Shown one piece after another: positions 3,262-57,041 of a stretch of DNA of 64,000 nucleotides (the stretch's first letter is position 1; each line of letters starts with the position of its first letter). Position numbers and translations under genes: made by a program. A model generated the notes under the pieces. That model saw only the letters and a program-made list of their open reading frames with translations, did no database searches and was not told the origin of the DNA. The DNA lies in the IMG/VR virus record IMGVR_UViG_3300038679_000357, positions 96,001 through 160,000 of that record. One strand, written 5' to 3'. Source of the stretch: a virus (lineage: Duplodnaviria > Caudoviricetes).

Positions 3262-3879
3262 TTAGTCCTCCATTGACTTTGACAACTTGTCGTAATACGC
3301 CTGCTTGTCTTTTTCATACCGTTCCTGATCTCCGCGAAACATATGGTGGTGAATGCATACCGGAATCCTGCCAATTCCGCCAACACCAGACAATTCGATG
3401 GATTGTACAACGCCTTCGTGTACTCGACCAGAAAAGAAGATTTGCTCCATCCGCTTAAACATTCTCGTCTGCATATCTGGATAGAACGGAGAAGTAAAAT
3501 ATGGGGAGTCATGATCATGGGATGGATAATGGTTCTTCCGGATCATCTGATAAGCCACTACGCCAGACTCATCAGCCATATCCATAGCCCTTCTTATAGC
3601 ATCTGTCTTTTCGCCCTCTAAGTGTTCGTCGGCGTCAAGCATCAAGATCCAAGACCTATTGCATTTGGCGATTAGGAAATTTCTAGCTGCTGAAAAATCA
3701 TCAATCCACTTGAAGTCGTATATCTCGGCACCCATTCTCTCGCAAATTTGCTTCGTGGAATCTGTAGATCCAGTATCCACTACGATCAGTTCATCGACCA
3801 CCCTACATACGGAAAGTATGCTGCGTTCGATATATTTTTCTTCATTCTTGAGTATATAAGCCAATGATATTCCACTCAT
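3262..3879 (-). CDS. GT2-family glycosyltransferase (beta-1,4-glucosyltransferase-like), 205 aa
   Basis: KNEE...VVDTGSTDST...WIDDFSAARN...LDADE and FSGRVHE motifs. Confidence 0.9.
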   Translation of the reverse strand: MSGISLAYILKNEEKYIERSILSVCRVVDELIVVDTGSTDSTKQICERMGAEIYDFKWIDDFSAARNFLIAKCNRSWILMLDADEHLEGEKTDAIRRAMDMADESGVVAYQMIRKNHYPSHDHDSPYFTSPFYPDMQTRMFKRMEQIFFSGRVHEGVVQSIELSGVGGIGRIPVCIHHHMFRGDQERYEKDKQAYYDKLSKSMED

Positions 3880-5396
3880 TGCAGAAGTCCTACAACTCTA
3901 TTGACAGCGCTTTTCCAAGTATATCTATCAAGAACCTCTTTACGAAGACGATTAGCCCGTTCCGCGACAACTTCATTTCCAGATACGACCATCTTCATGT
4001 GCGCAGATGCCTGCTCTACCTGCTCCATTCCAACTCGCCATAACTTCTGACCTTGATAAAAATACGAAATTGCAGACAATTCCTGTGGGCAATCCTCAGT
4101 TCCAGTACACTCTACCACAAACGAATTATCACGCCTAAGATACTCCGACATACCTGAATGAAGGCATGATATTACAGGCAATCCACGGGCAGCAGCCTCA
4201 ATCTGCGTTAAACTAAACCCCTCTCCTCTCGAAAGGTGAACGTAACAATCACAGGAGTCATATAACGATGGCATATCATCGATAGGAATGACGTTGTTAC
4301 ACAGCAATACTTGCGGAAGATCAGTTTTTCTATCCAAGTAGCGATCGAGAGTACCCTTAACAGTGTCAATGGAATACTGCGTCGAAATCACGAGACATAC
4401 ATCGTCTTCTTCATGAAATGACCTTACGAACGATTTAATGATAGCGTCGTATCCTTTTCTTAAATTCCACTGAATCACCGTCAAAAACTTAAATTTACCA
4501 ATACCATCAGTTGGTGGGCGACCATAAACACTTTTACATGTCGATAGATCATAGGATCTTTTTGATGACGAATATAATTTTTCATCAATCCCCAAGGGGA
4601 CTACTTTAATTGGTTTTCTAACACCTCCATTCCGAAATAATTCAGCGTTAGCTACAGACGGAACCCATACCTCATCACTATATGTATTGCAATAACGAGA
4701 AAAATCACCATGCAGCGTCGATGTCTCCATCATTGTAAAAAATATTGATTTTCCGCCATGGCGTCCATGCGGCATTGGAGTAAATGCATAAACTTTCGGA
4801 TATCGACTATCATGTGGGCGTAATATAGATAGCGAGCGAAGAAGTTTTTCCGTTTTCTTATCAACCTGCGCTACAGTAGGGTAAATATCTGGTATTGGAA
4901 CAAAACCACGACAAAAAAGACGTGACACAATCTCGCGGTTCATATTGGCGTATCCACCTGCATCAAGAAAAGAGCCCCACCATCCAACTGGTTTAGCAGA
5001 AGAAAAAAAGCGTCCATCGCGCATTTCTTCTAAGGTAGAAGCGTCAATCTGCCTGATGCTAGGAACCATCTCCTCAAACAAACGATGAAAATTACCATCA
5101 ACTCGAAACTTTGCTTGCCCCATTCTTTTTTGCCGAATAATATTACGAGATTTATCAACTTCACTTTTCGGCAATAAAAACAGGCGACCATCAGTAGATT
5201 CAGTTCCTATTGGAATATCATCCTCAAATATAATTTTATAGCCTGGATGAGCTTCAGGAAAATCAGCAGTAATGGAAGAAATTGATACCCCAGGATACAT
5301 CAGAGAAACGTCAGTAGTCGAAAAAACAGTCCCTCTTGCATTATCGTTGGAAACAGCTAATATCCGCAAGGAATCAATTTCATATACGACGAACAT
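3876..5396 (-). CDS. GT4-family (GT-B) glycosyltransferase with N-terminal extension, 506 aa
   Basis: FLTVIQWNLRKGYD and SRGEGFSLTQIEAAARGLPVI (E-x7-E) motifs; ATGA overlap with the downstream GT2 gene. Confidence 0.9.
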   Translation of the reverse strand: MFVVYEIDSLRILAVSNDNARGTVFSTTDVSLMYPGVSISSITADFPEAHPGYKIIFEDDIPIGTESTDGRLFLLPKSEVDKSRNIIRQKRMGQAKFRVDGNFHRLFEEMVPSIRQIDASTLEEMRDGRFFSSAKPVGWWGSFLDAGGYANMNREIVSRLFCRGFVPIPDIYPTVAQVDKKTEKLLRSLSILRPHDSRYPKVYAFTPMPHGRHGGKSIFFTMMETSTLHGDFSRYCNTYSDEVWVPSVANAELFRNGGVRKPIKVVPLGIDEKLYSSSKRSYDLSTCKSVYGRPPTDGIGKFKFLTVIQWNLRKGYDAIIKSFVRSFHEEDDVCLVISTQYSIDTVKGTLDRYLDRKTDLPQVLLCNNVIPIDDMPSLYDSCDCYVHLSRGEGFSLTQIEAAARGLPVISCLHSGMSEYLRRDNSFVVECTGTEDCPQELSAISYFYQGQKLWRVGMEQVEQASAHMKMVVSGNEVVAERANRLRKEVLDRYTWKSAVNRVVGLLQ

Positions 5397-5404
5397 CTAT
5401 CCAC

Positions 5405-8400
5405 CTATTTGTATGTGGATACGGAAGCCTTTCGGATAATGGAGACGGTTCCTCCGTCCACGGAAACGTTATCCTCGCTTCCCGCTCTCTCTTCTATAAT
5501 ATACACCGCGTTCAAGTCTCCCTTCATCGAATATTCTGCAACGGCATCTCCATACACAGTCGTAAATACAATGTAATCACCAACATGAAACCTCCCAGAC
5601 ATCTTTGTAGACAAAGAAATTGAGGATATTTCACGGAAGGATCTATTACGTATTGTAATCATATTTCCGTTAGTTGTATACCATAAGTCTACCTTAGCTC
5701 TAATTACCCCAGAATGTTCGAATGCGCTTCCGGCATCAAAGGAATACATGGAAGAATAAGTTGAATCAAGCCTGTGAATTATGTATGAAGATCCATCCAG
5801 CACACAAACATACAATGAATCATCCATGTGATGGAATGATGTTGGCGTTCCAGACACCCCTAAAACAACATTTCTTTCGATCAAAGTAAGATTTTCCCGC
5901 AATGTTGAGATAAAGATCCCAGAAGAAGAGTAGCCTAGAACATAAATAACGGTATTATGGACGGTTTGATCGACGAGAACGTCTTCCGCTGTGCCAATCA
6001 AATTATTATAAACCACAGATTGCTTTGCAAGAGTTTTTGATGGCTCCATGCCCAATTCTGAAAAATCAGTTTCCAAAGCCGAATAAACTGGTCTTCTGTC
6101 ATTATCATACATGTATGATCGGTCTACGGGACGATACATTGTTCCAATATAATCCAGAGACGCCGATGAGGGACCTTTGTTCACGATATCTACTGCGATA
6201 CGGAATAACGGTCGCATAGATAGCGTAACGGTAAATACGTCGGACAAAGGTTGCGCCTGTCCAAATACGAACGTTCCAGAATTACTGTCATAAGTGTATT
6301 CTCGATCTGAAACAATACTGCCGTATTTATCAGATTCCGTCACCCGGTACATTTCTACAACGTAATCCTGAGACCAACCGCCATACGCGGTGATATAGGT
6401 CGCTGCATCTTTCCTTACGAGCAATTCATTAACTCTACTTAGAACGATGCCACCATAGCCATCCTTCATTGCTGGTTGCTGATCTGACCAATACCATTCC
6501 CGTCCAACGTCGTCTGAATGTTTCACTCCATATGATACAGATGATGTAACTGGAACATTTCCATGGTGAGAAAAGATAATCTCGCCAACGTATCCATCCT
6601 TCCCATCATTTACTGGTATAGGCTGGAACATCAAAGTATAACGACGTGGTTCGTAATATTCGTACGCGGCAGAAACAAATGATGGCGACTCGAACGTATC
6701 TGGATCTCCACGGAAAGAAACGCGATACTCCATATACCTATTCACCATTCCGTATGATGACAAATCAAAATCTGTTCCAACTCCAATATCAATCCATTCT
6801 CCGAAATTCACCCCATCAGAACTAAAGCGGATTGAAAAGGTCAACCCCGAAACCCCAGGTGTCGTAACCATAAACGAAAGACGATCAAACAACTTTTCCT
6901 CACCAAGATCAATGATATTTGAATACCACCCAGTGACTAAATCAAAAGAGGGAGAATTAACAATAGAATCAACAACATATCCTGGAATAGAAACTGCATC
7001 CTCCACGTCTGAGACTTCCACTGGAAATCCGCCAAGAGAAGATGTAAATTTACGTACAACAAGATCATCATACGGTTCAGTGCGTTCAAGTTTCACAAAA
7101 ACCAATTCAACTGGATCTTCTGCATCTACCGATTTCAACTCAGACACAGCTTGATCATATGATAAATCTGAGTTGGATTCACCTCCGTCAGAAACAACAA
7201 CAACAACTTTCTTTGACGATGATAAATCCTGAGAAAAAGTGACCATTCTGCGAGCTGCTAATGCCAACGCATCATTCAACCTACTTGGTCCGATTTCAGA
7301 GAAGCTTTCAAGAACCTTATTGAAAATCAGCTCGTCAGTCTCTGGTTTAACGATCAATGATGGCGACGAAACAGAAGGGAACCAATGCATATCGCTTGTT
7401 ACAAGTGATTTATCTATGGCTTTCAATTCTTCCGGAAGACCTGGAATGAATGCTTCAGTCTTCAACACGGCTATAGTGCGAGGAGCATTATCATTACCGA
7501 CGACAACAATCCCATTATCATCTTTCTCTGTTTTAGATTCAATATCGTTATACTCATAAAAGCCAAAGTCTGCAAAAATACGAGTTCCATCCTCTACCGG
7601 TATATCGCCACCAGAAGTTCTAATGTAAGCATGAAATAGCATTGTATATCCTGGATCATATCCATGCATTCTGGCAGAAAATCCTGAAACAATCTTCCCG
7701 TCAACATATTGTGAAGTTGTCGGAATAATCTCTAATACATATCCCGAATCTCCTCCGGTGGTAGCAACTCCAGGGTAGCTAAATGCATAGTTATCCAACG
7801 ACCTGGATATACGAGAACCATCAGGTAAAGTTTTTCCATCGTCGTAATTAGCTTGAGCCTTGACTGCAAAAGCAACCGTTTTATTGGAAATTGGACCAAT
7901 ACCGATCACGGCAACCGACTTTACTATATGTGAATGAAGATTTGACACCCCGCCAGAAAGATCATATACCTCTTCAGACATCGGTGAAGTGGCATAAATA
8001 TTAACGGAATGAACGTGGTCCGGTATAGAGACGCCTTTTGAGTAGGTTACTGTACTTGTGGTAACTCCCTTTCCATTATCATCCACCGACATTTCATGAT
8101 AATGATCAAAATCAAATGAAGTTCGAAGATAATGCGTAGCAGCCTCATCAAAATCAAGAGAACATACAGTCCTATCCTCAAATCGTGAAAACTCAACGCC
8201 TTCCTTCGTTATCTTAACTGATCCAACGTCAAAAGAAACCATCGGTAAAGGATTATCGGAACGACCAACAATAAAGGTATCATGCCAAGTGAGTTCAGCT
8301 ACTGCAACATAACGACTTACCCCATCTCGCTTTAATGGATGGCTATAGGTATCATATCCTGAAGACTTGGGAGACTCTCCATTCGGCTGTTTTCGCCAAT

Positions 8401-11400
8401 CATTCTGCTGATACTCAGACTTATCTACTGGCTCAATATACACAGTAACGCCAAATGGCTCTACAAGATTGACTCTCGGTTTAGGTATTTTTGCCTGACC
8501 GCCACTTATTGTTTCAGTCAAGAACGATACGGTGTCGCTCTCTATTCCTATTCCAGACAAACCATATTTGCGAGATTTAGTGAATAAAGAAATAAATGCA
8601 CATTCCGGAGAATTACACGGATTTGGATCGTCTGGATCTGATTCACGATATGGCGGACGACCGATAAACATGTTAGAGTATAAGCGGTTGCTAACCCAAC
8701 CATAGGGAACGTCAGTATCGTGCTCAACTGGACCTTCAGAAGGCTCTCTACTTGACCATTTTGGCAAGCGTGTACCAACAGTCAATCCAGAACCACTATA
8801 AACCACGCCCATTGCAGACTGAATCAAGTCATCAGCAACTGTGTCAATATAAGGGAAATCTCTAAAAGATGACGCGGGAAGGTCTCCATTTATCGTAACA
8901 TAATCTATTCCGTCTGCCCATATCCTTTTCTGTCCGTGATAAACAGAGGATGGATTTGTATTGTAGCCAGAAGCGTAAAAATAGAAGTTCCCGCCAGACT
9001 GAGCTTGTTCACGCATCCATTCTACTTGACCTTCTTTCTTGGCGGTGAAGCCACGATATGTGCAAATAGCAGTTATCCCCTCAAACTCCCCCCTACCATT
9101 ATCTTCTAATGCGGCAAGACCGGTTGGCGCAGGTATCGGCTCATGAGGACCGAGAAGAACACCGTCAGCCACGCCTGACTCAGTTTGACTGACGGAAGGG
9201 GACATTTGCGTGCTTGTTGCCTCAAAATTAACCATAGTGCCATCAGAAACTGGCTCCACAGCCTTCCACGATACGTAAGCGCCTATATTATGCCTCGTTT
9301 CACCATCCGCCACGGATGGACCCATACCAGACATAGTTATAACAACTGGATTCCTATAATAAATTTTCTGCTTATTAACGACCTTAGATATACCATCATC
9401 CATTTCGAAAGATGCGTGGATATCAAGCAATGCAACTCTATTGAGAGGAGGTAGAGTAATTGTTGCAATTCCAGAAACAACTTTAACGGTATACTGCACA
9501 ACGTCAAGAAGATCATTGGCGAGAAGTGACTGTTCAGTAGAAATAGTGTACGGATCATCGTCATTAACTGTGCTAAAAACATTCTCTCCACCACCCATTG
9601 CCTCATTATCTCCGCACCCATCCAAGTCTGGAAGATCGTCATCTGCAGCTAATCTAGTATCTATTGTTCTTCGCGCATCATAAATTGCTACTCTCAATAC
9701 ACCATTTGCCGGGAAGCCCTTGTCTGTAATATTGTATGTAATGTTTATGTCATATGGATCTGTGGCGTAAGTCCCAGGAACAATTTGATCGTAAGTTGAT
9801 ACAGCTCCATCTTCATCGACTGATTGACACTGCTGAAAAACTGTTGTTCTATCCACGGCATTGGTGATATATATCGGACAGGCGAAATAAATATCAGTAC
9901 CCTTAACAAGGATAACTGCATTCCGATTACCAGAATCATCAAACATTGTAACCACTGGATTGACAGTATATTTTTTAGCGAGATACCTTACAGTTGATAA
10001 ACTTCCTATTTGCTGCTCTGTCAATTCAGTTGCGAATGACTTCATTTGAGTTGATGCGTACCCACCAATCGATTCCACCTTATGATCCATGGTGAAATCA
10101 GGAATGCCGTCATAATATACTGGCTCTTCAACAACCTCGTTTGACGTCGAAGATGACTGTACATAATCGGAGTCATCCACTCCCTCTTTCATCTCCCCCT
10201 TTTCCATATCTTCAATCGCCTTGGCGCGAACTTGATCTCGTTCACTTGGGTTGAACATCGACTTAGCCAAAGCATCTCGAACTGATGAATTTTCAAACCT
10301 ATCTTCTGTTATCGGACAGACTCTAACGGCGGACCATCCATTTTTGGTCATAATCTCTACTGACGAACGCTTCACTCTTGTTGGATCTGTATTGTAAAAA
10401 TCAGGATTTGCAGATGGATCTACCTGGGGTGGATCTAATGGGTCCAACAACGAAGGATCGTGAAGTGCGTGCGTGAAAATCGGTGTGATATCAACAAGGT
10501 TTACCGTCATCGGAAGTTTTTCCGACACATTGACATCTACTTTAGCGCCAATTTCCGTAGATGGAGTTACAATAGCTGCATGTTTTGACATCAAAAAAGA
10601 CGACGGCATCGCATCCGCGATTCCGACCACTCCAGATTGATCGATAGATGATACCGTTGTTGCATGATAGGCTACAGTCTCTCCTTCAGCAACTTTGTAG
10701 GCGTTCCGGTCATCATCAATAATATCAATGGAATCACCACGCTTTATAGATGAAGCATCCTGCGGAGATATATATATGATTGTTGCCCCAGATGAAGCAT
10801 CTGAAATTAAATAAATTGTTTTCTGTTTGGCTGCATCGCTATTCATCTCTTCAGTTGGCTCTTTATCAACATAAAACTCTACTATTGTTCCGTCTGGAAG
10901 CGGCTCTCCTTCTGCATCAACTGTATCAATTTCCAGGAGTGCGGTTTCATCCATGAAGTACAATTGATAGAATTCCCACGATGACATCGGCTTAAACACC
11001 CACTCTATATGAGCGCCATTTGCAGTCTGAACAAAAAATACAATATCAGATCCATTAAGTGGATCGACTACATAAAATTCAAACGCATCAGTTTTATCCC
11101 ATCCAGTAAGTGATTGAGCAGTATACCTTTCGATCATCGCCCCATTAGAAAGTGATGTCCCGATATATACTTCAGGATCAATTACTATTGCAATCGAAGA
11201 AACATAAGTGATATTTTTCGGCTGCTCAATAGAAGAAATAGAAGATATTCGAACTTGATCATCAACAATAAACGTATGCTCACCAACAACTATAGAGGTA
11301 TCACCTGGCTGAATATCTGATTCTGGTCGAGAAACAGTATAATCGTTAGAAAATCCGTAAACATACCTAATAGCATCCCTTCCAGATGAAGTTGAAACGG

Positions 11401-12589
11401 ACAAACACGCTTCTCCATTTGGTCCTTCGTCTGCAGTAGATATTGACGGAGAGTCAGATTGCCATACTGGTTTCCACCCATCATCTACTGTTTGAGTGCG
11501 AAATTCCGACCAACCGGTATCAAATCCATACACAAGATACTTTGATGAGGATAAACTCCTGAATCCGTACGCGACAACTCCTGTTCCCATATGAGCACGG
11601 ACGTCTCCTGATAACGGATTCCCAAAGGCATCCACTCCTGTTAATGCAGTGTAGTCGTCAACACTTACTGTTACTCCTCTCAACTTACCACTCATAGATA
11701 ATGATAACGGAGATAATGGTCTAGCTCCAAATTGTACAAAATCATACGTTACGTTACGAGGAAACTTAGACTTGAAAGACGACATAATTCCATTGACAAT
11801 CTCTTTTCTAAGAGAGAAGCGATCATTCCACCCCATACTTCCAGACGAATCAACTACATAAGATAAATGCAAATCCATTGGAATTAATCTAATTGAGTCA
11901 ACGGATGGTGATGGATAATATGGACCAGGACCAGAAACGATCATCGTATTGTAAAATGTTCCAGAAGACAAAACGCTTTTTCCAGATTGACTGCCAGACG
12001 AAAGTATTGCTGGCGGGGTAACAATCATGTGTCCAGGCATTGGTCCAATTATTTCGGAATAAGCGTCAAAATCTGAAGCAGCACGAACAGTGCGATGAGC
12101 CCCTAAAATATCCTCCCATGTAGAGCCTCCGTCAGAACTCATGGAGCAACCGTTATCTCCGTCAACTATAGCATAAGCCCAAGCGGCATAGTTGTTTTCA
12201 TCACCACCAGACTGCCACACAGTAAGACACAATCCATTTTCAGGAGTAGTCATCTCTGGTATGGATAAGTTAAATTTATACCAGTCATTTTGCTGTATCG
12301 CTGAAGATAAAATAGAAGCAGAAGATAAAATTGAACCAGTTGGATGTCCGTTTTCGTCAGACTCCCGCAATTCCGCCCACATCGTAAAAGAAAGATCATT
12401 ATCTGATCTAGCTCTGATGAGATATATGGCTACCCACCCGACAGATATCAACTTCTGCACAAATGACAATTTCTGAGATAAAATTCTTGGAGTAGATGGG
12501 TTAAAATTGACAGCAGAGTGACTTGTCGCAACGAATTTTGTTGCGGACCAGCCCGATACACCGTATTTTCCTAAAACTTCGTTGGACAT
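5405..12589 (-). CDS. Giant distal-tail/adhesin protein with a split vWA domain, Ig-like repeats and a triple-HxH module, 2394 aa
   Basis: DSSGS MIDAS at aa 247 and GPSRLNDAL...VVVVSDG at aa 1767-1801. Three P-x-x-DGT-x-[VI]-x-x invasin/Big_1-like motifs. Located in the tail gene block. Confidence 0.7.
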   Translation of the reverse strand: MSNEVLGKYGVSGWSATKFVATSHSAVNFNPSTPRILSQKLSFVQKLISVGWVAIYLIRARSDNDLSFTMWAELRESDENGHPTGSILSSASILSSAIQQNDWYKFNLSIPEMTTPENGLCLTVWQSGGDENNYAAWAYAIVDGDNGCSMSSDGGSTWEDILGAHRTVRAASDFDAYSEIIGPMPGHMIVTPPAILSSGSQSGKSVLSSGTFYNTMIVSGPGPYYPSPSVDSIRLIPMDLHLSYVVDSSGSMGWNDRFSLRKEIVNGIMSSFKSKFPRNVTYDFVQFGARPLSPLSLSMSGKLRGVTVSVDDYTALTGVDAFGNPLSGDVRAHMGTGVVAYGFRSLSSSKYLVYGFDTGWSEFRTQTVDDGWKPVWQSDSPSISTADEGPNGEACLSVSTSSGRDAIRYVYGFSNDYTVSRPESDIQPGDTSIVVGEHTFIVDDQVRISSISSIEQPKNITYVSSIAIVIDPEVYIGTSLSNGAMIERYTAQSLTGWDKTDAFEFYVVDPLNGSDIVFFVQTANGAHIEWVFKPMSSWEFYQLYFMDETALLEIDTVDAEGEPLPDGTIVEFYVDKEPTEEMNSDAAKQKTIYLISDASSGATIIYISPQDASSIKRGDSIDIIDDDRNAYKVAEGETVAYHATTVSSIDQSGVVGIADAMPSSFLMSKHAAIVTPSTEIGAKVDVNVSEKLPMTVNLVDITPIFTHALHDPSLLDPLDPPQVDPSANPDFYNTDPTRVKRSSVEIMTKNGWSAVRVCPITEDRFENSSVRDALAKSMFNPSERDQVRAKAIEDMEKGEMKEGVDDSDYVQSSSTSNEVVEEPVYYDGIPDFTMDHKVESIGGYASTQMKSFATELTEQQIGSLSTVRYLAKKYTVNPVVTMFDDSGNRNAVILVKGTDIYFACPIYITNAVDRTTVFQQCQSVDEDGAVSTYDQIVPGTYATDPYDINITYNITDKGFPANGVLRVAIYDARRTIDTRLAADDDLPDLDGCGDNEAMGGGENVFSTVNDDDPYTISTEQSLLANDLLDVVQYTVKVVSGIATITLPPLNRVALLDIHASFEMDDGISKVVNKQKIYYRNPVVITMSGMGPSVADGETRHNIGAYVSWKAVEPVSDGTMVNFEATSTQMSPSVSQTESGVADGVLLGPHEPIPAPTGLAALEDNGRGEFEGITAICTYRGFTAKKEGQVEWMREQAQSGGNFYFYASGYNTNPSSVYHGQKRIWADGIDYVTINGDLPASSFRDFPYIDTVADDLIQSAMGVVYSGSGLTVGTRLPKWSSREPSEGPVEHDTDVPYGWVSNRLYSNMFIGRPPYRESDPDDPNPCNSPECAFISLFTKSRKYGLSGIGIESDTVSFLTETISGGQAKIPKPRVNLVEPFGVTVYIEPVDKSEYQQNDWRKQPNGESPKSSGYDTYSHPLKRDGVSRYVAVAELTWHDTFIVGRSDNPLPMVSFDVGSVKITKEGVEFSRFEDRTVCSLDFDEAATHYLRTSFDFDHYHEMSVDDNGKGVTTSTVTYSKGVSIPDHVHSVNIYATSPMSEEVYDLSGGVSNLHSHIVKSVAVIGIGPISNKTVAFAVKAQANYDDGKTLPDGSRISRSLDNYAFSYPGVATTGGDSGYVLEIIPTTSQYVDGKIVSGFSARMHGYDPGYTMLFHAYIRTSGGDIPVEDGTRIFADFGFYEYNDIESKTEKDDNGIVVVGNDNAPRTIAVLKTEAFIPGLPEELKAIDKSLVTSDMHWFPSVSSPSLIVKPETDELIFNKVLESFSEIGPSRLNDALALAARRMVTFSQDLSSSKKVVVVVSDGGESNSDLSYDQAVSELKSVDAEDPVELVFVKLERTEPYDDLVVRKFTSSLGGFPVEVSDVEDAVSIPGYVVDSIVNSPSFDLVTGWYSNIIDLGEEKLFDRLSFMVTTPGVSGLTFSIRFSSDGVNFGEWIDIGVGTDFDLSSYGMVNRYMEYRVSFRGDPDTFESPSFVSAAYEYYEPRRYTLMFQPIPVNDGKDGYVGEIIFSHHGNVPVTSSVSYGVKHSDDVGREWYWSDQQPAMKDGYGGIVLSRVNELLVRKDAATYITAYGGWSQDYVVEMYRVTESDKYGSIVSDREYTYDSNSGTFVFGQAQPLSDVFTVTLSMRPLFRIAVDIVNKGPSSASLDYIGTMYRPVDRSYMYDNDRRPVYSALETDFSELGMEPSKTLAKQSVVYNNLIGTAEDVLVDQTVHNTVIYVLGYSSSGIFISTLRENLTLIERNVVLGVSGTPTSFHHMDDSLYVCVLDGSSYIIHRLDSTYSSMYSFDAGSAFEHSGVIRAKVDLWYTTNGNMITIRNRSFREISSISLSTKMSGRFHVGDYIVFTTVYGDAVAEYSMKGDLNAVYIIEERAGSEDNVSVDGGTVSIIRKASVSTYK

Positions 12590-13175: not shown

Positions 13176-16100
13176 TTATGGATTTCCACCGTCTATCTCA
13201 ATATCCCAGATAACCGTATCTGGAAATCCTCCGTCAAACACATCTTCCAATACGGAAGTCGGCAATCCTCCATCAAGAATATCCCACGGCTCTTCCGAAT
13301 TACTAGATGAACTAGACGAAGAACTGAATGAACTACTGCTCGAAAGACTTGAACTACTACTCGAAAGACTTGAACTTACACTGGATGAACCAATCTGTCT
13401 GCTATATTTGTCAGATTGATATACATAATACCCAGAAGAAGTAGAAAAAGCCACTTCAGACGAAGAAAGGACGTAAACTCCACCAAGATATGAAGGAAGA
13501 GGGTTATATTGTTTTGAGTCTTCAAGATCAATAGCCTCTGTCCAAGTATCTCCGTTATCAAATGATGAATATATTCGATGACCAGAGCCAACGGCGTATT
13601 CCATTCCACCAACAAATCCGATACCATTAACTTCCTCAATTAACGGAGAAAGGTAATGTCCATGCGTTAAGCTGTCACCTACCGCATCCCTAGACTCAGA
13701 CGAAACAATTGAAAATTCTCCAGCCTTAATAGAATGAGTATGACTCCACTCCGCGTTTTTCCTAATAAACACAACGTTCGATACCGAAGGAGCGCTTATC
13801 ACTTGAGTGGATGGAGGAACTTGAATGATCCCAGGAAATACCGCAAGGACATCAAACTTATACGAGAGACCATCAGTACAGTCAATTTTCATTACATCCC
13901 CGGAAGAAGCCATAGAGCTGTCACTCACACCCACTAAGGTGTCACCATAGGCAATCCCTGACGTAACTGTTGTACTTCCGGCTTCATACTCAAAATAATA
14001 CGCTCTTGCGTACGAACCATTATCAATGGTAAAATCACATGGAAGAGGCGAGGATAACCCGACGATAGATCCTGAAACGGAGACAACTTCTGATAAAAAT
14101 GACGTGCGATTAGAAACAACTTCCAATTTACACCCGACAACAACACCAAATACGGATACTAATTCTAATTCATTTGCCCCCTTCAACGCATCGTATGATA
14201 AAAGAGAGTTAGATGAAATGAACTTACTGTCATATTCCATGGCGACCGTCTTTCCAAAACCAACTGTAGACAAATGGATTCGGAAACCTACACCAACCTT
14301 ATTCCCATCATTTCCTGAGATATCAATTTTCCCATCCTCTCGTGCCACGAAAATAGACGAAGAACTATGACGAACAACTCTCAGCCGATAGCGCACAAGA
14401 GGTTGTTTTGGATCGTATGCCGTCAGCCAAAATCCTGTAAATAAATCAGTCTCTGATGACAGCCATGGATCAACCAACTGCCATGCTCCAGAAAGCAATA
14501 GTTCTACCTCAAACGAGGTGGAAGATGGTATCGCTGTTATATCACCGATAATTGGTCCTGAAATAGGAGTGACTTGATGCCGATGTCCATTGTTCCAAGA
14601 CGAAAAAACATTCGAAAAAGAAGGTATTGACGACAAGGGGACTATAGAAAGACTAAAGTCAATTCCAGAGTACAGAGTGTTAAAAACAGAATACGACGTT
14701 AACTCTCCGTCAACTCCAATTGCCTCATACGATTCTCTAACGCTAATGATTGTTTCATCATTTGATACAATCTGTAATTTTCCTCCATCGGGAATAGAAT
14801 CTACGCCGTTGAACGACAATTGATTTCCAGACAACTCATTAACCTGTCTCTGAGAATCAAAATCAACCACAATTGGTATATTTCCAACAGAGTTAGTGCA
14901 ATAAACTGTCGCTCCGACACGAAGAGTGGAAATCGTATCGTATCCTTCGGGAGCTACTACTTCAGATGATAACTCAATAAAATTGGCGGTATTTTTAACG
15001 ATCTTGTAAACGGCTATATCAGATCTTGGCAATCCATATTCAGACTCCTGTGGTTCAACAACAAGGGAACCTCCATTAAGTAGGGACGGCTGCATCGTTC
15101 CCACATAATCAACATACAGCCTGATTCCAGATCCAGACAAGCGAAATCCGTATCCATTAACGGCTGATGACGCATCTCCAGAAACAACCATGTCAACAGT
15201 GCCATCAGGTTTGGACGCCGAATTTGAGACGACTGTAAGAGGTGGTATAGACGCAATAAACGATATTTTCCATTCCACAACCTCATTTACTACAACCGCC
15301 TTAGACAATTTAGCAGACAACCTATAGGAAGAACTTAACCCTGGCGACGGAACGACATACTCGACTACACCAGAAATACCAACGCTCTCTATAACGGCTG
15401 CATTTCCAATCGCCGAGATCCTACCATCCCTACGCCTGTCATAAGAAAATGTGCCACCTGAATCCCATTTCAAACCGTCAGAAGTTCCAACATGGATTCT
15501 TCTTTGACGATCCTCTCTAATGCAGTTCATCCTATATGGCAGAACGGTAAACGTTCCACCAGACGATGACATCATGGATTCCCCAAATACGACAATTGTT
15601 GACCCGCTATTTGAGACAACTCTCGCTTCACTCCCGCCGACTGCCATCATCCTTCCAACAAGACTTCCGTCCGGAGGCGGTCCAAGATTAAAATCAACCG
15701 CAACAGATACATTCAAAGCGTCAGTAATCGACATTGAAAGAATGTTCCCGGTCAGTGAAACTGAAGAGAATAATTCGTTCCACCGATTTCCAGTCCCAGT
15801 ACACACATAAACTCCAGAACGATTTCCGTCAGCAGATTTGGCACACGCTGCGATAGATCCGTTCATAAGCAATCCGTATGAAACTACAGTCATATCGGAA
15901 AGTTTATCGCTAGTTGAGTACAAGCTTCCCTTCAGCCATGACACCCCCTTATCATCACTATACGACAAGAATCCATCACCAGATACAATCAGTGTATTTA
16001 CAAATGAAGGATTTGACGGATTGACTACACCGTCCCATTTGTTCCACCAATATGATGTCCCATCATCAGACCTTATTGCTCCCCACCTGGCAGCAATCAC

Positions 16101-50006: not shown

Positions 50007-50008
50007 TT

Positions 50009-50230: not shown

Positions 50231-50289
50231 TTTCCTCTCGGACCCACCATTCCCATTTTTTTGAGAACTGAAGTATAGATGAGCCGAGA

Positions 50290-50742: not shown

Positions 50743-50782
50743 AAAAAACTCCGTTGTTATCCTATTTGATTATACAACGGAG
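50743..50782 (-). terminator. Hairpin (9-bp stem, 16-nt loop) plus U6, overlapping the promoter and RBS of the chaperone gene
   Basis: CTCCGTTGT-N16-ACAACGGAG-TTTTTT-ATG on the minus strand. Confidence 0.6.
50765..50780 (-). promoter_or_regulatory. Putative phage promoter CCGTTGTATAATCAAA
   Basis: Identical 16-mer at 63705..63720 (+); contains TATAAT; 22 nt upstream of ATG 50742. Confidence 0.7.
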
Positions 50783-50827
50783 AGCATATAGCTTTTGCTT
50801 GGATCAGCCATCAATTTTCGTGGCATC

Positions 50828-52264
50828 TCACCATCTGAATAGCACCACCTTCTTGTTTGTGCTCCATCTTTTGCAGATCGACAGGCAGAAGAAATGGTAC
50901 ATCCACCGATTAGGCTTTAAGCCCAAAAAGGCTATCACTAATACGGCGATAACGACCCACAGATGGAGGAATCCCTTCAGACCAACCATAATAACAAGGT
51001 AACACATAATGGAATGAAATAGGACAAAGAATTTTTTATTTGGCATGGTTATTTCCCACACATCTGCGTTGTACTTACCATAATAACGTCCACACGAATT
51101 CATGGTCGGAATATGCTGTGCCCCGACATGACCACGTATCTCACAGACTCCATCGATAACCAGCTCAAAAAAAGTGTAAAAGGCGACCATAGCGCCTAGT
51201 GGGATGAGCACAAACGCACCTGGACCTTCGTGGGCTGCGTAGGAGACGGCGATCAGAAAAAACGAAATGGGAGTCAGGAAATCCTTTGCCTGCACGTCAA
51301 AATAGAAGTGATCCTCTTTCTGACGGCGATGGGCTTCCTTAACAACGGCAACCTGATTCTCAACTGCCTGCCGCTCCGCTTCATCGCGGAACTTCTTTGC
51401 ACGCATAATGAGGAGCTTCATTTCCTGTTCATCACCATACATGTATTCGTCATGCGTGTAGATATATGGAACCGCGTCGTAATAACACGTCCAATCCGCT
51501 GTCGGCAGATATTCAAACACAGGATTCGCCTCGATCATCTGCCATTTCGGCTTGACGATGCCGTGATTCACATAGTTGGCACCAACAACGATATGGCGAC
51601 GACGAATGGTGTTTGCGTCATCATCCGGATGCAGATTTTCATAATCCATCAACGGCAGGCGTGACGGCGGAATGCTATTTTCACTCGCATTGATATACCA
51701 TGGGTACATCTCCACAATCCGACGATCGATCTCATTCAGATTCTCATACGGATCACGGTAATCGAGATTTGATGGCTCCTGATGCGAAAAAGAGAAGGAG
51801 CCTTGCTCTTCCTCGGATTGGTCAGAATCATTTGGCTTTCCGAAGAGAGTATCATGATTTTTGCTGAAGGTGGAAGGGTAAGCCGACTCAGCCTGCCTTG
51901 CATCGCTCGCATAACGGTAGTCGTTACGGGTACGGGTCATCACGGCGGCGGCGGCGATGTACATGACGTCATCCGAACTGGCGGTGATCATTGGGGCTCC
52001 ACTGCCAAAACCGTCAAATGCCTGGTTTCCCCGGATCTTGAACAGGGGGGAGCCGCCGCCATTGGTCGCATAGACGGTATCGCCGATGACGGTGCAGAGC
52101 GGGGTCCCAGACACGCAGTGTCCGAGGAAGACCATATTTCCGCTGATCGTACAAACTGGGTTGGAATAATCGCTGCGTCGGTACAGACAGTCTCCCTCCC
52201 CTACGAAAATTGGACTGCCGTAATCGTGCTCGACTCCGTAACCGCCAAATAGCTGAACTGACAT
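50828..52264 (-). CDS. Moron: membrane protein with N-terminal short beta repeats and ~4 C-terminal TM helices, 478 aa
   Basis: ATG 52264 with GGAG RBS (the longer ORF overlaps the tube gene); I.G..VY.G repeats; two hydrophobic hairpins; elevated GC in the 5' part. Confidence 0.7.
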   Translation of the reverse strand: MSVQLFGGYGVEHDYGSPIFVGEGDCLYRRSDYSNPVCTISGNMVFLGHCVSGTPLCTVIGDTVYATNGGGSPLFKIRGNQAFDGFGSGAPMITASSDDVMYIAAAAVMTRTRNDYRYASDARQAESAYPSTFSKNHDTLFGKPNDSDQSEEEQGSFSFSHQEPSNLDYRDPYENLNEIDRRIVEMYPWYINASENSIPPSRLPLMDYENLHPDDDANTIRRRHIVVGANYVNHGIVKPKWQMIEANPVFEYLPTADWTCYYDAVPYIYTHDEYMYGDEQEMKLLIMRAKKFRDEAERQAVENQVAVVKEAHRRQKEDHFYFDVQAKDFLTPISFFLIAVSYAAHEGPGAFVLIPLGAMVAFYTFFELVIDGVCEIRGHVGAQHIPTMNSCGRYYGKYNADVWEITMPNKKFFVLFHSIMCYLVIMVGLKGFLHLWVVIAVLVIAFLGLKPNRWMYHFFCLSICKRWSTNKKVVLFRW

Positions 52265-52286
52265 AGGTGACTCCTTGGTTAATGGA

Positions 52287-52314
52287 AATATAGCCTCAAC
52301 CAAGTAAAAGTCAA
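52287..52314 (-). promoter_or_regulatory. Sigma70-type promoter for the moron gene
   Basis: TTGACT-N16-TATATT, directly after the tube terminator and 22 nt before ATG 52264. Confidence 0.7.
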
Positions 52315-52326
52315 GTACATGAACAC

Positions 52327-52358
52327 AAAAAAGGAGAGGCGGCATATGCCGCCCCTCC
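52327..52358 (-). terminator. Rho-independent terminator after the tail tube gene
   Basis: GGAGGGGCGGC-ATAT-GCCGCCTCTCC-TTTTTT (11-bp stem including one G-U pair). Confidence 0.9.
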
Positions 52359-52379
52359 AGAAACCCCATCTCCAACAAA

Positions 52380-53297
52380 TTAGAGAACGAATTCGACGCG
52401 CCCTTTTCCATGGGTGGTAACACCCTTGAAATTGATCGTCGTAACGATAGGTCCAATCTGGGATTCTGCCGTTCCCCTTGCAAAACGGACTGCTGCATAA
52501 ACCCTGAAATTCGCACCGATATCGAAGCGAATTGGGTATGCGTAATCACCGTCGTATTCATCCCAGAAATTAGCACCTTTGCCAGGATCGCGACTTGACT
52601 GTATGCCACCATCGCCAGCATAGGATGTGATCGATCCTTCTACGTTCTTCATTCCCTCAACCAGATCTCCAAACAGATCCGACTGTCCAAGAACGAATTG
52701 ACGCTGGAGGTTGTTCGATGCAGTAAACTGGAATGCCTGCAACCCATCCATATAGTCAAGTGTTTCGTAGACTGAATTCCAGTCTGCGTCATCATCGCGT
52801 TTAAGAACTGGGCTACCACTATTCTGCAGAATGCGGAACGACGACTTGTCCCATGTGACAAGTTTTTCACCCTTCGTAAATCCAGTCATATCGACTGGGT
52901 CTACGTCAAGCAACTTTGTTCCCATGATGTCAAGTGTATAGTTGACGACTTCACCAGCAGTCACATTGAATGTGAATTGGTTTAATCTGCAACCAGCAAA
53001 CGCTCTAGTAAATCCATCGAAATACTTGACGTTAATTGTAACGCCATCCTCGTAATTAGCTTCGAGGTAGTCGATGAACTCGCCGGTACTCTCAGTAACG
53101 GGTCCGTTGATTGATCCAGCCACTTCGATTTTACCGAACGCCCACGCATTGTGGGTTTCGTCACCCATGACCATGTCAGGGGCTTCGATCTGCTGTTCGG
53201 CGTTCAAGGAGCATGTATTGAACCTGATCTTCAACTTCGTGAGATCAGGACTATCAATCTGTGCGTAGCCCCTGAATCCTGGTTTAATCATAGCCAT
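52380..53297 (-). CDS. Major tail tube protein, 305 aa
   Basis: GKIEVAGSING...FAGCRLNQFTFNVTAGEVVNYTLDIMG...FQFTASNNL...GMKNVEGSI matches the siphovirus-type tube pattern; GGAGG RBS; followed by chaperones and TMP. Confidence 0.85.
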   Translation of the reverse strand: MAMIKPGFRGYAQIDSPDLTKLKIRFNTCSLNAEQQIEAPDMVMGDETHNAWAFGKIEVAGSINGPVTESTGEFIDYLEANYEDGVTINVKYFDGFTRAFAGCRLNQFTFNVTAGEVVNYTLDIMGTKLLDVDPVDMTGFTKGEKLVTWDKSSFRILQNSGSPVLKRDDDADWNSVYETLDYMDGLQAFQFTASNNLQRQFVLGQSDLFGDLVEGMKNVEGSITSYAGDGGIQSSRDPGKGANFWDEYDGDYAYPIRFDIGANFRVYAAVRFARGTAESQIGPIVTTINFKGVTTHGKGRVEFVL

Positions 53298-53321
53298 GTG
53301 AGTAACCTCCTCGTTAATTGA

Positions 53322-53648
53322 TTAGGAGGAGAAGTCCATCGCGGTATTCGGCTGTCCGGGGATACCGTGTACCATCCTCATGACGTAGTCATTTACGGCT
53401 TCGCCCAGACTGTCATAAGAAGTGGTTGAACCATCATACTTTGACGTACCAAGGACGAGGTCGCCTTCGCCAGTTATAACAAACGGATTAATCGTCGTAC
53501 CAGCCTTCGTCCTGGCGCTAACCGTCAACTTCAGATAGGTATCGAGAACTCCGTCGGTTTGATCAGCCAAAACTCCCTGTTCCGCGTCCAACGTGATATT
53601 CTTCTGCCTTCCAGTGGAAGGATCGAAGACCTTAATCGTGCTTGCCAT
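53322..53648 (-). CDS. Small putative structural protein, ~108 aa
   Basis: ATG 53648 with GGAGG RBS; C-ending codon bias like the tube gene; directly upstream of the tube gene. Confidence 0.6.
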   Translation of the reverse strand: MASTIKVFDPSTGRQKNITLDAEQGVLADQTDGVLDTYLKLTVSARTKAGTTINPFVITGEGDLVLGTSKYDGSTTSYDSLGEAVNDYVMRMVHGIPGQPNTAMDFSS

Positions 53649-53667
53649 ATTTTTTTCCTCCATTATC

Positions 53668-53683
53668 CCATCCTTTCGGATGG
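53668..53683 (-). promoter_or_regulatory. Perfect GNRA-tetraloop hairpin CCATCC-GAAA-GGATGG
   Basis: Intergenic, just upstream of the RBS, with no U-tract. Confidence 0.55.
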
Positions 53684-53710
53684 CAAATTTCGTTCTTTAT
53701 CAAAATACTA

Positions 53711-55138
53711 CTATGTGAACACAATTCCCTTTTCCATCGAAGCTAATAAAACAATAGCTCGATGAATATAGGTATGCGCTCTTGCGACCTCTTTCGATTG
53801 CCTACCTGCAATTTCCTTTGATAAATCACCCTTAGAGAGTAAATAAACTGCCTCTGCCATAGAATCAGCATCGGAAACGCATGAATTACCGTAAATTTCT
53901 TCCACCTCCCACCTATAATCTGTCAACAAAGCAGAACCACAAGCTGGAGCGTCATAACATCTTGGGTTCATACTTTCGGCACGAAGATTAAATAATCGAT
54001 TATCAGTAGACTCCTCTCCATTCGAATTCCGAAAAAGATTAATACAAATCCTCGATGACGCTTGGGCAAGTAACGTATTATCTGTCGTAAACTCTCCGCG
54101 AACAAAGAACGGCATATCAACAATGTCCGCATCCTTACACGTTCCACCAGCAAACATCTTCAAACCAGCCTGCATACACATGTCGTGAACTGAAATCAAC
54201 ATTTTTTTTCTTTCCGGATAGACCGCACCAATAAAACACACGTCATATTGCTTGCCGCCCATAGACTCAGCCAACTTCATTGCTGATGAACAGCGCTTCA
54301 TGTCAGCAGCCGTCGGAAGATAGTTGACGCCAAATCCCTCAGCTACAGAGATTTCATTTGTCATGATATGGTCATAATACGAATGGATTGAAGTTGATAT
54401 GTCCAAAGCATACGGATCTTCCGTAGAAATAACCACTTTTTTCAAACCACAAGACTCCAGTAGCCACCCAGGTATGGACAAACCATCTGTGACTACAATA
54501 TGAGTGTAGCCATTTCTTTTATCAACGCATTCAGCAAGCAACATTTTCAGCACAACATCTGGAACAAAAAATCTACGCAATAAATCGTACTCAAATTTAC
54601 CATACTTAACCCCGATATCGGAAAACGCCGACACATAGGCGTCAAATACAGCTTTCGTACCCCATCCAAGTAAACCACTAACAAAAAGCGGCTTAAATCC
54701 ATCAATCAAAGAAATAGAAGGGTTCTTGGATGCGATATAATTGAGCCACAACGAACCAGCGTATTTTAATGCTCCAGAAACTGCATGAACTTCAGTGATC
54801 ACAGATGGAGATGGGTGAGAAGCGTGGAGTGTTTTTACGTCTGGAGAAAAGAATTTTCTCTGTTTACCAGCAATCACGGCAAGACGTACCATAGCTGCTC
54901 CAAAATCACTTGGAATAGACTCAGGGACGAAAGATGTCGGAATACACATCCAACCGTCTGGGATCGGCAACCCCATTCCATACGGTAAAGACCTAACATT
55001 TCCATGAGGAACACACCCCTCATAACCAATACAAAATGCAGACTTACATCTGAATGGCTCTACGCCATCCCAACTCATATCTGGAGACAAAGATGGAGAA
55101 GCAAAGATGGAATATTCTCCAAGCTCAATTCTATGCAT
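53711..55138 (-). CDS. CgeB/YkvP-family (GT1_2-like) glycosyltransferase, 475 aa
   Basis: YDVCFIGAVYPER...SRICINLFR...NPRCYDAPACGSALLTD...HTYIHRA. Confidence 0.85.
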   Translation of the reverse strand: MHRIELGEYSIFASPSLSPDMSWDGVEPFRCKSAFCIGYEGCVPHGNVRSLPYGMGLPIPDGWMCIPTSFVPESIPSDFGAAMVRLAVIAGKQRKFFSPDVKTLHASHPSPSVITEVHAVSGALKYAGSLWLNYIASKNPSISLIDGFKPLFVSGLLGWGTKAVFDAYVSAFSDIGVKYGKFEYDLLRRFFVPDVVLKMLLAECVDKRNGYTHIVVTDGLSIPGWLLESCGLKKVVISTEDPYALDISTSIHSYYDHIMTNEISVAEGFGVNYLPTAADMKRCSSAMKLAESMGGKQYDVCFIGAVYPERKKMLISVHDMCMQAGLKMFAGGTCKDADIVDMPFFVRGEFTTDNTLLAQASSRICINLFRNSNGEESTDNRLFNLRAESMNPRCYDAPACGSALLTDYRWEVEEIYGNSCVSDADSMAEAVYLLSKGDLSKEIAGRQSKEVARAHTYIHRAIVLLASMEKGIVFT

Positions 55139-56171
55139 GAAGCATCTCCAATAACGTTTGATATACTATAGGGGCTGTAATCTTTTGCATACATCCATTT
55201 TTATCTTGCGACAAACAAAAAGATGAGCTTACAGCCGGACCTTCGCACGCCTGACATTTTCCAATTCGTATAATCTTAGAAAACCTTCCACCATGATCCC
55301 ATCGACGAGAAACCGCCCCCTTCAGTAAGATATATTTCGGATGATCTATAAAAATTGCCGCATGAGCTGGCCACGAGTCAGTACCAATGTAAACGTCAGC
55401 TCGACTCAATAGGTATAAATAATCCTGAAACATAGCATCGCGACCAATTACGTCATAATGCGGAATGATGCCATCACAAAAAACTTTTTGCCCACCAGAC
55501 ACAAATTGAATTACTGGCAATCCCAACCCTTCAACCATCGAATATAATTCTCTCCATCTATCAACAGCCCATGCCTTCAATGGATAGGCGCTTTGACCAT
55601 TAATTGGAGACCTACTGTCATGAAAAATAATAAATCTCTCTGGAAGAGATATAGATAAATTTCTTTGCCTGGTGTATTCGTATATCGGAATCGACACTCC
55701 ATCATAGCTGCAATTCAATCCAAACCTATGCCAATCAGAAAAATAATCATCCTCTGAATTGAAAAGTCCAATTAAACTTGATGGAGAAATATCGTAAACT
55801 GAGTTGATTTTCACTCCCATTTTCTCAGAAAGAGCCAAAACGTATTTTTTCCCATATTCTCGGCACAATTCAACTGACGAGTCTTTAACCGGGAAGAAAA
55901 AGTTCAACTCGCCATCCACACTCTTTCTGAATTTATTGAATACGATAAAATCAATTTTAGGATGCAATCGAGATATATAGTCACGATCTCTAAACTTAGA
56001 GATATCTGACCTGACAATGTCAGATACGAACTCCATTCCTTGATATACTTGCGGAACCAAATGATCACAGTAAAAAACAGTCACCTCACCATACATGTCA
56101 TGTAGGTTTCGCACAACAGAAGTTCCAAGTATTGCATCGCCGATCCCGCCGGTTTGAAAGAAACCGATCAT
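55131..56171 (-). CDS. GT9-family (heptosyltransferase-like) glycosyltransferase, 346 aa
   Basis: GGIGDAILGTSVVRNL...KAWAVDRW...ADVYIGTDSWPAHAA. Confidence 0.9.
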   Translation of the reverse strand: MIGFFQTGGIGDAILGTSVVRNLHDMYGEVTVFYCDHLVPQVYQGMEFVSDIVRSDISKFRDRDYISRLHPKIDFIVFNKFRKSVDGELNFFFPVKDSSVELCREYGKKYVLALSEKMGVKINSVYDISPSSLIGLFNSEDDYFSDWHRFGLNCSYDGVSIPIYEYTRQRNLSISLPERFIIFHDSRSPINGQSAYPLKAWAVDRWRELYSMVEGLGLPVIQFVSGGQKVFCDGIIPHYDVIGRDAMFQDYLYLLSRADVYIGTDSWPAHAAIFIDHPKYILLKGAVSRRWDHGGRFSKIIRIGKCQACEGPAVSSSFCLSQDKNGCMQKITAPIVYQTLLEMLHA

Positions 56172-56174
56172 AAC

Positions 56175-57041
56175 TCACCATTCGTCTTCCGACTTCGCAA
56201 TAAATAACCCATATCCGACATCAGGTTTTGCTTGAAGAAAATCAGAATAATTATCATCCGTAAACAACCCGGATATATCTCCATTGTACAAGCCCCATTG
56301 CGGATGTGCATCAGCATGCTCATCAACGAGAATTTGACCAGCGGCGTTTGCCCCATGCTTAAAGTCAAGAACTGGAAGACCATGAACGACTTCGTAGCTG
56401 TCAACTATATCTCCTGAACCTGCTTCTCCATTATCAAACTCTCTTGGAACTGGCTCTAAAATTCCGGTTGACTTGAACCTTATTTTTGTGTTGAAATGGG
56501 AATGCAGAGCACTGATCTTCGCGGCGTACCTGCTCAGATGCCAAAAATGGATCTTTGGCTTGAAAAACCCATCTCTGTCTGCAAATACATGATCATAATA
56601 AACGGAATAATCCACGCCATTCCTGATTGGTGCTGACATTGCCTCAACATACCCAGGAGGGTACATAACATCATGTTCCCATAAAATAACTGGTTTGTTT
56701 CGGTCTACTTGAGATATTTCAAGGGCGTGAACAATCTGAGACAAAATAGTTTCTGGTGAATATACCAACATACCAGTGACAACATTAATAGCGCTCCTCG
56801 GAAGTGAAACTTTCAAGTCAAACTTACCCATGAACGACGCCAAATGTTTATTGGGCTCGTCATTAACCAGACCGTCAAAATCAACGGAACAATTGGTCGT
56901 CCTGTCGGAGACAGGCATATGAGAAGATATCACCAAGCCATATCCATATGACGAAGCTGCATTAATCGCGGACGTCAGCGTTTTATGGAGAAGGGGTTTC
57001 GGAAGCAGGCAATTCGTATAGAAGACGATCAATCCATCCAT
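56175..57041 (-). CDS. Putative GT-A-fold glycosyltransferase, 288 aa
   Basis: VFYTN...SQIVHALE...VILWEHDVMYPPGY (EHD in place of DxD); adjacent to two other GT genes. Confidence 0.6.
   Translation of the reverse strand: MDGLIVFYTNCLLPKPLLHKTLTSAINAASSYGYGLVISSHMPVSDRTTNCSVDFDGLVNDEPNKHLASFMGKFDLKVSLPRSAINVVTGMLVYSPETILSQIVHALEISQVDRNKPVILWEHDVMYPPGYVEAMSAPIRNGVDYSVYYDHVFADRDGFFKPKIHFWHLSRYAAKISALHSHFNTKIRFKSTGILEPVPREFDNGEAGSGDIVDSYEVVHGLPVLDFKHGANAAGQILVDEHADAHPQWGLYNGDISGLFTDDNYSDFLQAKPDVGYGLFIAKSEDEW

Follow-up and report, generated by a model that had tools for sequence, protein, structure and literature searches.

Candidate glycosyltransferases in the tail module of an uncultured groundwater phage suggest a late, phage-encoded system for virion glycosylation

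Introduction

To our knowledge, sugar-coated phage particles have so far been shown only in a few mycobacteriophages. According to the account of Freeman et al. (2023, Cell Host Microbe 31:1216) given in a paper on moraphages, both the capsid and the tube subunits of these phages have C-terminal extensions, which carry the glycans (PMC12619734). Genes for glycosyltransferases (GTs) also occur among the tail genes of a phage (Duplodnaviria; Caudoviricetes) from groundwater metagenomes, IMG/VR record IMGVR_UViG_3300038679_000357, which belongs to a lineage different from the T4-like one of the moraphage paper (PMC12619734). The window analyzed here, a stretch of 64,000 nucleotides, comprises bases 96001–160000 of this 255,142-bp record (rated 97% complete) and is the tail and fibre region of the uncultured phage. 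Five GT genes of the window are the subject of this report. We propose, with moderate confidence, that they are part of a late phage-encoded glycosylation system acting on the phage’s own tail, neck or fibre proteins.

Bacterial systems provide further points of comparison. The bacterial autotransporter heptosyltransferases (BAHT), including TibC and AAH, are cytoplasmic and place sugars on Ser residues of a structural protein (PMC4358343). In enterotoxigenic E. coli, the protein heptosyltransferase TibC acts in the cytoplasm, where it glycosylates an adhesin of beta-helical fold on Ser residues; its C-lobe carries an inserted Cys4 iron finger formed by C339, C342, C358 and C370 (PMC4358343). 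The Bacillus prophage SPbeta encodes the sublancin S-glycosyltransferase SunS/YolJ. In Gram-positive bacteria, serine-rich repeat adhesins are glycosylated by GtfA/GtfB plus GT8 and GT2 extenders.

With mycobacteriophage virion O-glycosylation, the groundwater phage shares the location of GT genes inside a structural block and the proposal of its own particle proteins as substrates. Unlike the mycobacteriophages, it has a tube protein without an extension, a different host and lineage, and a set of about 11 GTs that spans at least five families and includes two enzymes core to the tail module; furthermore, the mycobacteriophage glycans have been demonstrated, whereas the system described here is known from its genes. 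The serine-rich repeat adhesin systems resemble it in combining long Ser-rich tracts with GT4, GT8 and GT2 enzymes in one genome. However, none of the three GT4 proteins has GtfA among its NCBIfam matches, an accessory Sec system is lacking, and the tracts consist purely of Ser instead of SxSx repeats. Specific to this phage are a syntenic core pair of GT-A-like and GT9-fold genes beside the tube gene, a GT9-fold enzyme with a Cys4 cluster, and a large GT set in a huge phage.

Glycosyltransferase genes beside the tail tube

The original prediction placed five GTs of different families in the tail operon, and this identification was borne out: GT2, GT4 and CgeB-like enzymes are recognized by Pfam, the GT9 enzyme by structure, and the GT-A-like enzyme by a family profile. 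All long open reading frames (ORFs) of the window run on the minus strand. Three of the GT genes form a block with the tube gene, listed here in the direction of transcription:

58192–58914, minus strand: p240, conserved neck/tail protein, first gene of the conserved block
57051–57974, minus strand: p307, conserved neck/tail protein that may be a tail terminator, with the GT-A-like gene always next downstream
56175–57041, minus strand: GT-A-like glycosyltransferase, 288 aa (family profile, invariant E122-x-D124)
55131–56171, minus strand: GT9-fold glycosyltransferase, 346 aa (structure match, D12, DSWPxH, Cys4 cluster)
53711–55138, minus strand: CgeB-like GT-B glycosyltransferase, 475 aa (PF13524, 2.3e-11)
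53322–53663, minus strand: p113, small conserved protein (Ser+Thr 20%) encoded between the genes for the CgeB-like enzyme and the tube
52380–53297, minus strand: tail tube protein, 305 aa (PF18906, 1e-14)
52333–52358, minus strand: strong intrinsic terminator just past the tube stop codon (11-bp stem with 9 GC pairs, T run)

The predicted position of the three GT genes between the tail terminator and the tube was correct as to order, with the refinements that p113 intervenes before the tube gene and that the terminator label is weak, as p307 owes it to one weak language-model lead. The overlapping or near-adjacent gene junctions described earlier are present at both GT sites of the window, with overlaps of 4 nt and 8 nt and gaps of 0 to 9 nt.

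The order p240, p307, GT-A-like, GT9-fold, tube, with the CgeB-like gene and p113 before the tube in some loci, was kept in 24 of 24 related loci, a set that includes a few near-duplicates. GT9 identity across these loci ranges from 58% down to 31%. Conservation of the GT-A-like and GT9-fold proteins is about equal to that of p307 and somewhat below that of the tube, whose identity in relatives is 41–74%. The loci fall into two clades; one possesses the CgeB-like gene, p113 and an upstream actin-like gene, and the other lacks all three. Because the CgeB-like gene and p113 are clade-limited and the order of the remaining genes is kept throughout, the GT-A-like and GT9-fold genes are core genes of the tail module. 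The CgeB-like gene and p113 are present together in ten loci (L002, L003, L014–L019, L021, L022) and absent together from the other clade. The p113 protein could be a partner or substrate of the CgeB-like enzyme, but this pattern fits a single gain or loss.

Predicted transcription signals agree with this arrangement. A near-consensus promoter (TTGACT-16-TATATT, 52314–52287) comes after the terminator that lies past the tube gene, and no comparably strong terminator was found from p307 to the tube. As the terminator stands only after the tube gene, the three GT genes belong to a single unit that also includes p240, p307, p113 and the tube, and these predicted signals indicate that they are co-transcribed with tail genes. 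Together with the synteny of the 24 loci, the placement of the terminator bears out the earlier view that the GT genes are embedded among late tail genes. A long ORF at 50828–52621 overlaps the tube gene. Since the terminator and promoter lie there, the true start of this ORF is probably far downstream of the first start codon, and the overlap is an artefact of ORF calling.

Relatives of the block were found in metagenome assemblies only, on contigs of up to 500 kb. Among GenBank phages, there was no relative of the tube, GT9-like or CgeB-like protein. IMG/VR contigs scanned with the GT9-like protein and its alignment likewise yielded no relatives, and a scan of bacterial and archaeal genomes for GT9-like relatives yielded none; thus, it gave no clue to the host.

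The GT9-fold, GT-A-like and CgeB-like enzymes

An AlphaFold model of the 346-aa protein, built from an alignment of 30 homologues, reached a predicted local distance difference test (pLDDT) score of 92.4. Structural alignment of this model gave Z scores of 20.2 for 3tov, 19.3 for WaaF (1psw), 18.6 for TibC and 17.4 for WaaC, compared with at most 11.9 for the best non-GT9 fold (VIA-align), and a Foldseek comparison with GT9 structures gave E 4e-10. By its modelled structure, the protein therefore has a GT9 fold. The match to TibC has the lowest root-mean-square deviation, 3.2 A over 263 residues, and is tied for best with those to the lipopolysaccharide (LPS) heptosyltransferases. Residues 1–346 of the model align to TibC 98–389, the phage protein beginning directly at the Rossmann strand.

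Residues of catalytic type are conserved in the GT9-like family. A GGIGD motif with D12 is found in at least 90% of the sequences, D265-S266-W267-P268 is invariant, and H270 is present in at least 90%. GGIGD and DSWPxH align with lGDvIlttP and NDSGPMH of 3tov, in hidden Markov model alignments that are weak and not significant alone. In addition, four Cys residues (C306, C309, C319 and C327), located just before the C-terminal helix, are invariant in 28–30 GT9-like sequences. With the BAHT enzymes TibC and AAH, the phage enzyme shares a GT9-type GT-B catalytic domain, and its four conserved C-lobe Cys residues near the C-terminal end may correspond to the iron finger of TibC.

For the 288-aa protein, a single-sequence AlphaFold model reached a pLDDT of only 34, and profile evidence was used instead. 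The protein itself has no Pfam match and does not reach PF00535, a family matched by 7 of 50 members of its own family. In 62 representatives of this family, E122 and D124 are invariant, and the ExD of the family profile aligns with the DDD of KfiA and heparosan synthase (E 0.01–0.03). Its neighbours in the ESM Atlas are viral GT2 clusters. On this profile evidence, the protein is filed as GT-A-like only and not as GT2. The CgeB-like protein scores 44.3 bits against PF13524, above the cut-off of 25, and 70 of its residues, including an NPRCYD...CG...LLTD motif, are invariant in 10 orthologues.

A GT2–GT4 pair behind giant appendage genes

The other two GT genes of the window follow a giant late gene:

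5405–12589, minus strand: giant late protein of 2394 aa, presumed tail appendage, directly upstream of the GT4 and GT2 genes (ORF)
3876–5396, minus strand: GT4-type (GT-B) glycosyltransferase, 506 aa (PF13692, PF00534 and PF20706, the last named GT4-conflict)
3262–3879, minus strand: GT2 (GT-A fold) glycosyltransferase, 205 aa (PF00535, 1.1e-16)

This is the arrangement that had been predicted, with the two genes directly after the giant gene; the GT4 stop and the GT2 start overlap by 4 nt. The closest relative, a contig of 500 kb, likewise has GT4 and GT2 after its second giant gene, and the orthologues are 65% (GT4), 75% (GT2) and 68% (2394-aa protein) identical. The giant protein itself has a single weak VWA match.

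Both enzymes score above their Pfam cut-offs: GT4 with 48.1 bits for PF13692 (1.9e-12; cut-off 27) and 43.2 bits for PF00534 (cut-off 26.4), and GT2 with 61.7 bits for PF00535 (cut-off 23.3). The DxD motif of the GT2 protein is LDADE, at residues 81–85. Its best NCBIfam match is SunS (9.5e-16), at 57.6 bits against an equivalog cut-off of 350 (TIGR04195) and with model positions 59–203 of 421 matched, and it is 33% identical to SPbeta yolJ over residues 4–155. Judged by these matches, the SunS/YolJ peptide glycosyltransferases are nearest to its GT domain and share the GT2 catalytic domain. Unlike SunS, the phage protein is only 205 aa long, lacks anything equivalent to the C-terminal half, and falls far below the family cut-off.

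As a side observation, a 632-aa metallophosphoesterase (1363–3261, minus strand), whose C-terminus resembles a PHROG ‘DNA transfer protein’, abuts the GT2 stop codon; it also stands after GT4 and GT2 in the closest relative.

Serine and threonine tracts in late proteins

The long Ser or Thr tracts noted earlier are real, occurring in four proteins of the window and using all six Ser codons:

13176–20225, minus strand: giant late protein of 2349 aa with a poly-Ser linker at residues 2274–2315 (nt 13281–13406), followed by a short acidic C-terminal module
25715–27091, minus strand: fibre protein of 458 aa with a 13-Ser C-terminal tail (nt 25721–25762)
28135–31554, minus strand: late protein of 1139 aa with a 99-residue poly-Ser linker at residues 1019–1117 (nt 28204–28500)
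36006–39188, minus strand: late protein of 1060 aa with poly-Thr at residues 99–127 (nt 38808–38894)

Three poly-Ser proteins and one poly-Thr protein are thus encoded in the window, and five more poly-Ser proteins elsewhere in the genome. Because the tracts mix all six Ser codons, they reflect selection at the protein level and not a DNA microsatellite. Among the 46 tRNA genes of the genome are four for tRNA-Ser, which between them read all six Ser codons. Of the eight poly-Ser tracts, three form free C-terminal tails and five are linkers before small C-terminal modules.

GTs and tracts occur together in the closest relative, the one relative in which this co-occurrence was compared: all three poly-Ser tracts of the window stand at the same positions, altered in sequence, alongside the GT genes. 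For example, the orthologue of the 2349-aa protein has a 30-residue Ser tract at the same place, and that of the 1139-aa protein retains both its tract and the C-terminal motif DWDGNDILDW that follows the linker. The 458-aa protein is identified as a fibre because its homologues carry Mtd_N, adenovirus-fibre or YadA-stalk domains; among 120 homologues, only the closest-relative orthologue has the poly-Ser tail. A homologue search with the 1139-aa protein returned none, nor did it return the query itself. For the other poly-Ser proteins and most late genes, PHROGs and Pfam gave no function.

Short acidic peptides rich in Trp, Asp and Gly (DWDGNDILDWNGNNI; PWDILDGG...DGG) form the C-termini after the two largest poly-Ser linkers (13176–13300 and 28135–28210, minus strand). 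They are kept in the closest relative, and a docking function is conceivable.

Further glycan genes and donor sugars

The genome holds at least 11 GT genes, belonging to at least five families, together with a methyltransferase gene and a gene for GDP-mannose 4,6-dehydratase (gmd), nearly all of them in its late half. Outside the window, in genome coordinates, these comprise:

87445–88464 (L010:9445–10464), minus strand: GDP-mannose 4,6-dehydratase, gmd (TIGR01472, 409 bits versus a cut-off of 415)
167681–170859: two further GT4 genes, paralogues of the GT4 gene at 3876–5396 of the window
209977–213422: genes for a methyltransferase, a GT8 and a weakly GT9-like protein, with a poly-Ser protein encoded on each side
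224521–226028: GT2 and a weak GT2

The original prediction expected donor sugars from the host or from elsewhere in the genome, which can now be refined: gmd lies 7.5 kb before the window, beside primase and DnaB-like helicase genes, and is the sole nucleotide-sugar enzyme found in the phage. A search of the genome found no sugar nucleotidyltransferase, ADP-heptose pathway gene or DegT-type aminotransferase.

The cluster at 209977–213924 (L007:4977–8924, minus strand) encodes a poly-Ser protein of 152 aa, a 562-aa protein, GT8, the methyltransferase and a 1470-aa protein ending in poly-Ser. In the 562-aa protein (211734–213422), the C-lobe is weakly GT9-like and a Cys-rich ...CM..IT motif is present; the match of this protein to the GT9-like family is weak (E 0.0012). 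Another proposed ‘GT9’, at 221978–223333, was ruled out, as it has no similarity to the GT9-like family.

A proposed glycosylation system and its alternatives

From the enzyme identities, synteny, co-transcription signals and conservation described above, we infer substrates, sugars and an effect on the particle as follows. A multi-enzyme protein-glycosylation system would be made late, together with the virion parts. Most likely, the GT-A-like and GT9-fold enzymes, joined in this clade by the CgeB-like enzyme, would attach sugars to one or more of p240, p307, p113, the tube and the fibres during folding. By analogy, the GT9-fold enzyme may work similarly to TibC, in which case it would act in the cytoplasm, bear a Cys4 metal finger and O-glycosylate Ser residues of a structural protein. 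GT4 and the SunS-like GT2, with the GT4, GT8, GT2 and methyltransferase genes elsewhere in the genome, would start and extend O-glycans, for which the likeliest acceptors would be the poly-Ser stretches, whether tails or linkers, found in at least eight late proteins. Donor sugars would be mostly host-derived, with the phage GDP-mannose 4,6-dehydratase supplying a 6-deoxyhexose route. The suggestion that the virion is glycosylated has gained partial support, from the conserved catalytic motifs and from the resemblance of GT2 to SunS and of the GT9-fold enzyme to TibC, which act on peptides and proteins; that poly-Ser tracts are acceptors for part of the GT set is plausible. More tentatively, the system may extend across a whole lineage of large uncultured phages found in metagenomes of groundwater and further environments, with glycosylation obligatory in tail morphogenesis, the GT-A-like and Cys4 GT9 enzymes at its core and acting on tube, neck or fibre proteins, and further GTs assembling complex O-glycans on poly-Ser tags.

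If true, glycosylation of the virion would be an ancient feature built into the way huge environmental phages assemble their particles, and not an occasional accessory trait. Furthermore, the TibC-type idea of a metal-finger GT9 acting on a structural protein would reach beyond bacterial adhesins into viruses. With three to five genes, the block of GT-A, GT9 and tube is a compact set, which can be tested without culturing the phage.

Several points weigh against this proposal. The phage is uncultured and known from sequence alone. Its tube protein ends in ...HGKGRVEFVL, without a Ser/Thr-rich C-terminal extension, and contains 12% Ser+Thr. In the GT9-fold enzyme, the PF01075 match (E 0.0074) reaches 16.1 bits, below the cut-off of 22. 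The Cys4 cluster lies roughly where the iron finger of TibC sits, a correspondence of position and fold only, in a region where model confidence is 62–80, and profile searches against PDB sequences did not link this region to TibC. The Cys spacing also differs (CxxC-x9-C-x7-C in the phage versus CxxC-x15-C-x11-C in TibC), and the N-terminal beta-barrel of TibC (residues 1–97) is absent. With the barrel absent, the spacing different and no link at the sequence level, the phage enzyme is not a BAHT member. Finally, the idea that the poly-Ser tracts serve as acceptors drew no support from gene positions. In the late region, the distance of poly-Ser genes from GT genes is no shorter than that of randomly chosen genes (p 0.6–0.95); a genome-wide proximity signal (p 0.014) arises because both kinds of genes sit in the late half. 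No poly-Ser tract was found within 10 kb of the tube-side GT genes in any of the 24 related loci.

These positional results favour a narrower explanation, in which virion proteins are glycosylated on Ser/Thr residues of folded tail or fibre domains and the poly-Ser tracts are merely flexible linkers or tails. Poly-Ser linkers can be plain flexible linkers, five of the eight tracts stand between a large body and a small C-terminal module, the tube-side GT block is conserved in 24 loci that have no tract within 10 kb of it, and TibC offers a precedent by acting on a beta-helix. However, the three tails are not linkers, since they are free C-terminal ends with nothing beyond to link, and the single fibre homologue that shares the tail is that of the GT-bearing closest relative. 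We regard this explanation as rather unlikely.

Less probable still is that the GTs remodel the host envelope late in infection, altering, for example, the LPS core or surface polysaccharide and thereby masking receptors from progeny or rival phages. GT9, GT4, GT2 and GT8 are families of LPS and surface-polysaccharide synthesis, gmd is typical of O-antigen pathways, and WaaF and WaaC match the GT9 model as closely as TibC does. With these LPS heptosyltransferases, the phage enzyme shares the fold (Z 17–20), an N-terminal GD motif and a D(S/T)xPxH motif. Unlike them, it has an extra Cys4 cluster, a Pfam GT9 score below the cut-off and a gene located in a phage tail module. We know of no such cluster in WaaC or WaaF. 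Moreover, strict neck–tail synteny at deep divergence and co-transcription with the tube are unlike accessory conversion genes, and flippase, polymerase and lipid-carrier genes were not seen in scans of the window.

It is very improbable that the enzymes glycosylate phage DNA to evade restriction, as happens in T4 and further hypermodifying phages. A number of GT sets from phages act in this way (reviewed in PMC12619734), and the GT4 genes match the ‘GT4-conflict’ Pfam family. However, the 97%-complete genome contains no thymidylate-synthase-type hydroxymethylase (ThyX-type or other routes were not searched), and the GT genes lie in late structural units, away from replication genes. Equally doubtful is a non-catalytic role of the tube-side proteins in structure or assembly, for which their position between neck protein and tube, a usual site of structural genes, would speak, as DSWPxH and D12 (GT9), ExD (GT-A) and PRxYD...G...D (CgeB-like) are conserved, in 28–50 sequences for GT9 and GT-A and in 10 CgeB-like orthologues.

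Other features of the region

The window has a GC content of about 42% and a steadily negative GC skew. A C1q-like domain was found in a 1096-aa protein and Mtd_N in a 179-aa protein. Elsewhere in the genome, at 162320–164368 (L011:2320–4368, minus strand), a DNA methylase gene with a LAGLIDADG endonuclease domain suggests an intein or a fusion. A 332-kb relative (L004 7808–9091) has p307 and the GT-A-like gene separated by an IS605/TnpB (Cas12f-like) insertion on the opposite strand.

Upstream of p240, the neck/tail module also contains a full-length actin homologue of the volactin family (58923–59984, minus strand; PF25216, 2.5e-59). Volactin is a cell-shape protein of Haloferax. This actin-like gene is the best conserved of the block: its identity is 70–86% among relatives of clade I, and the loci of clade II lack it.

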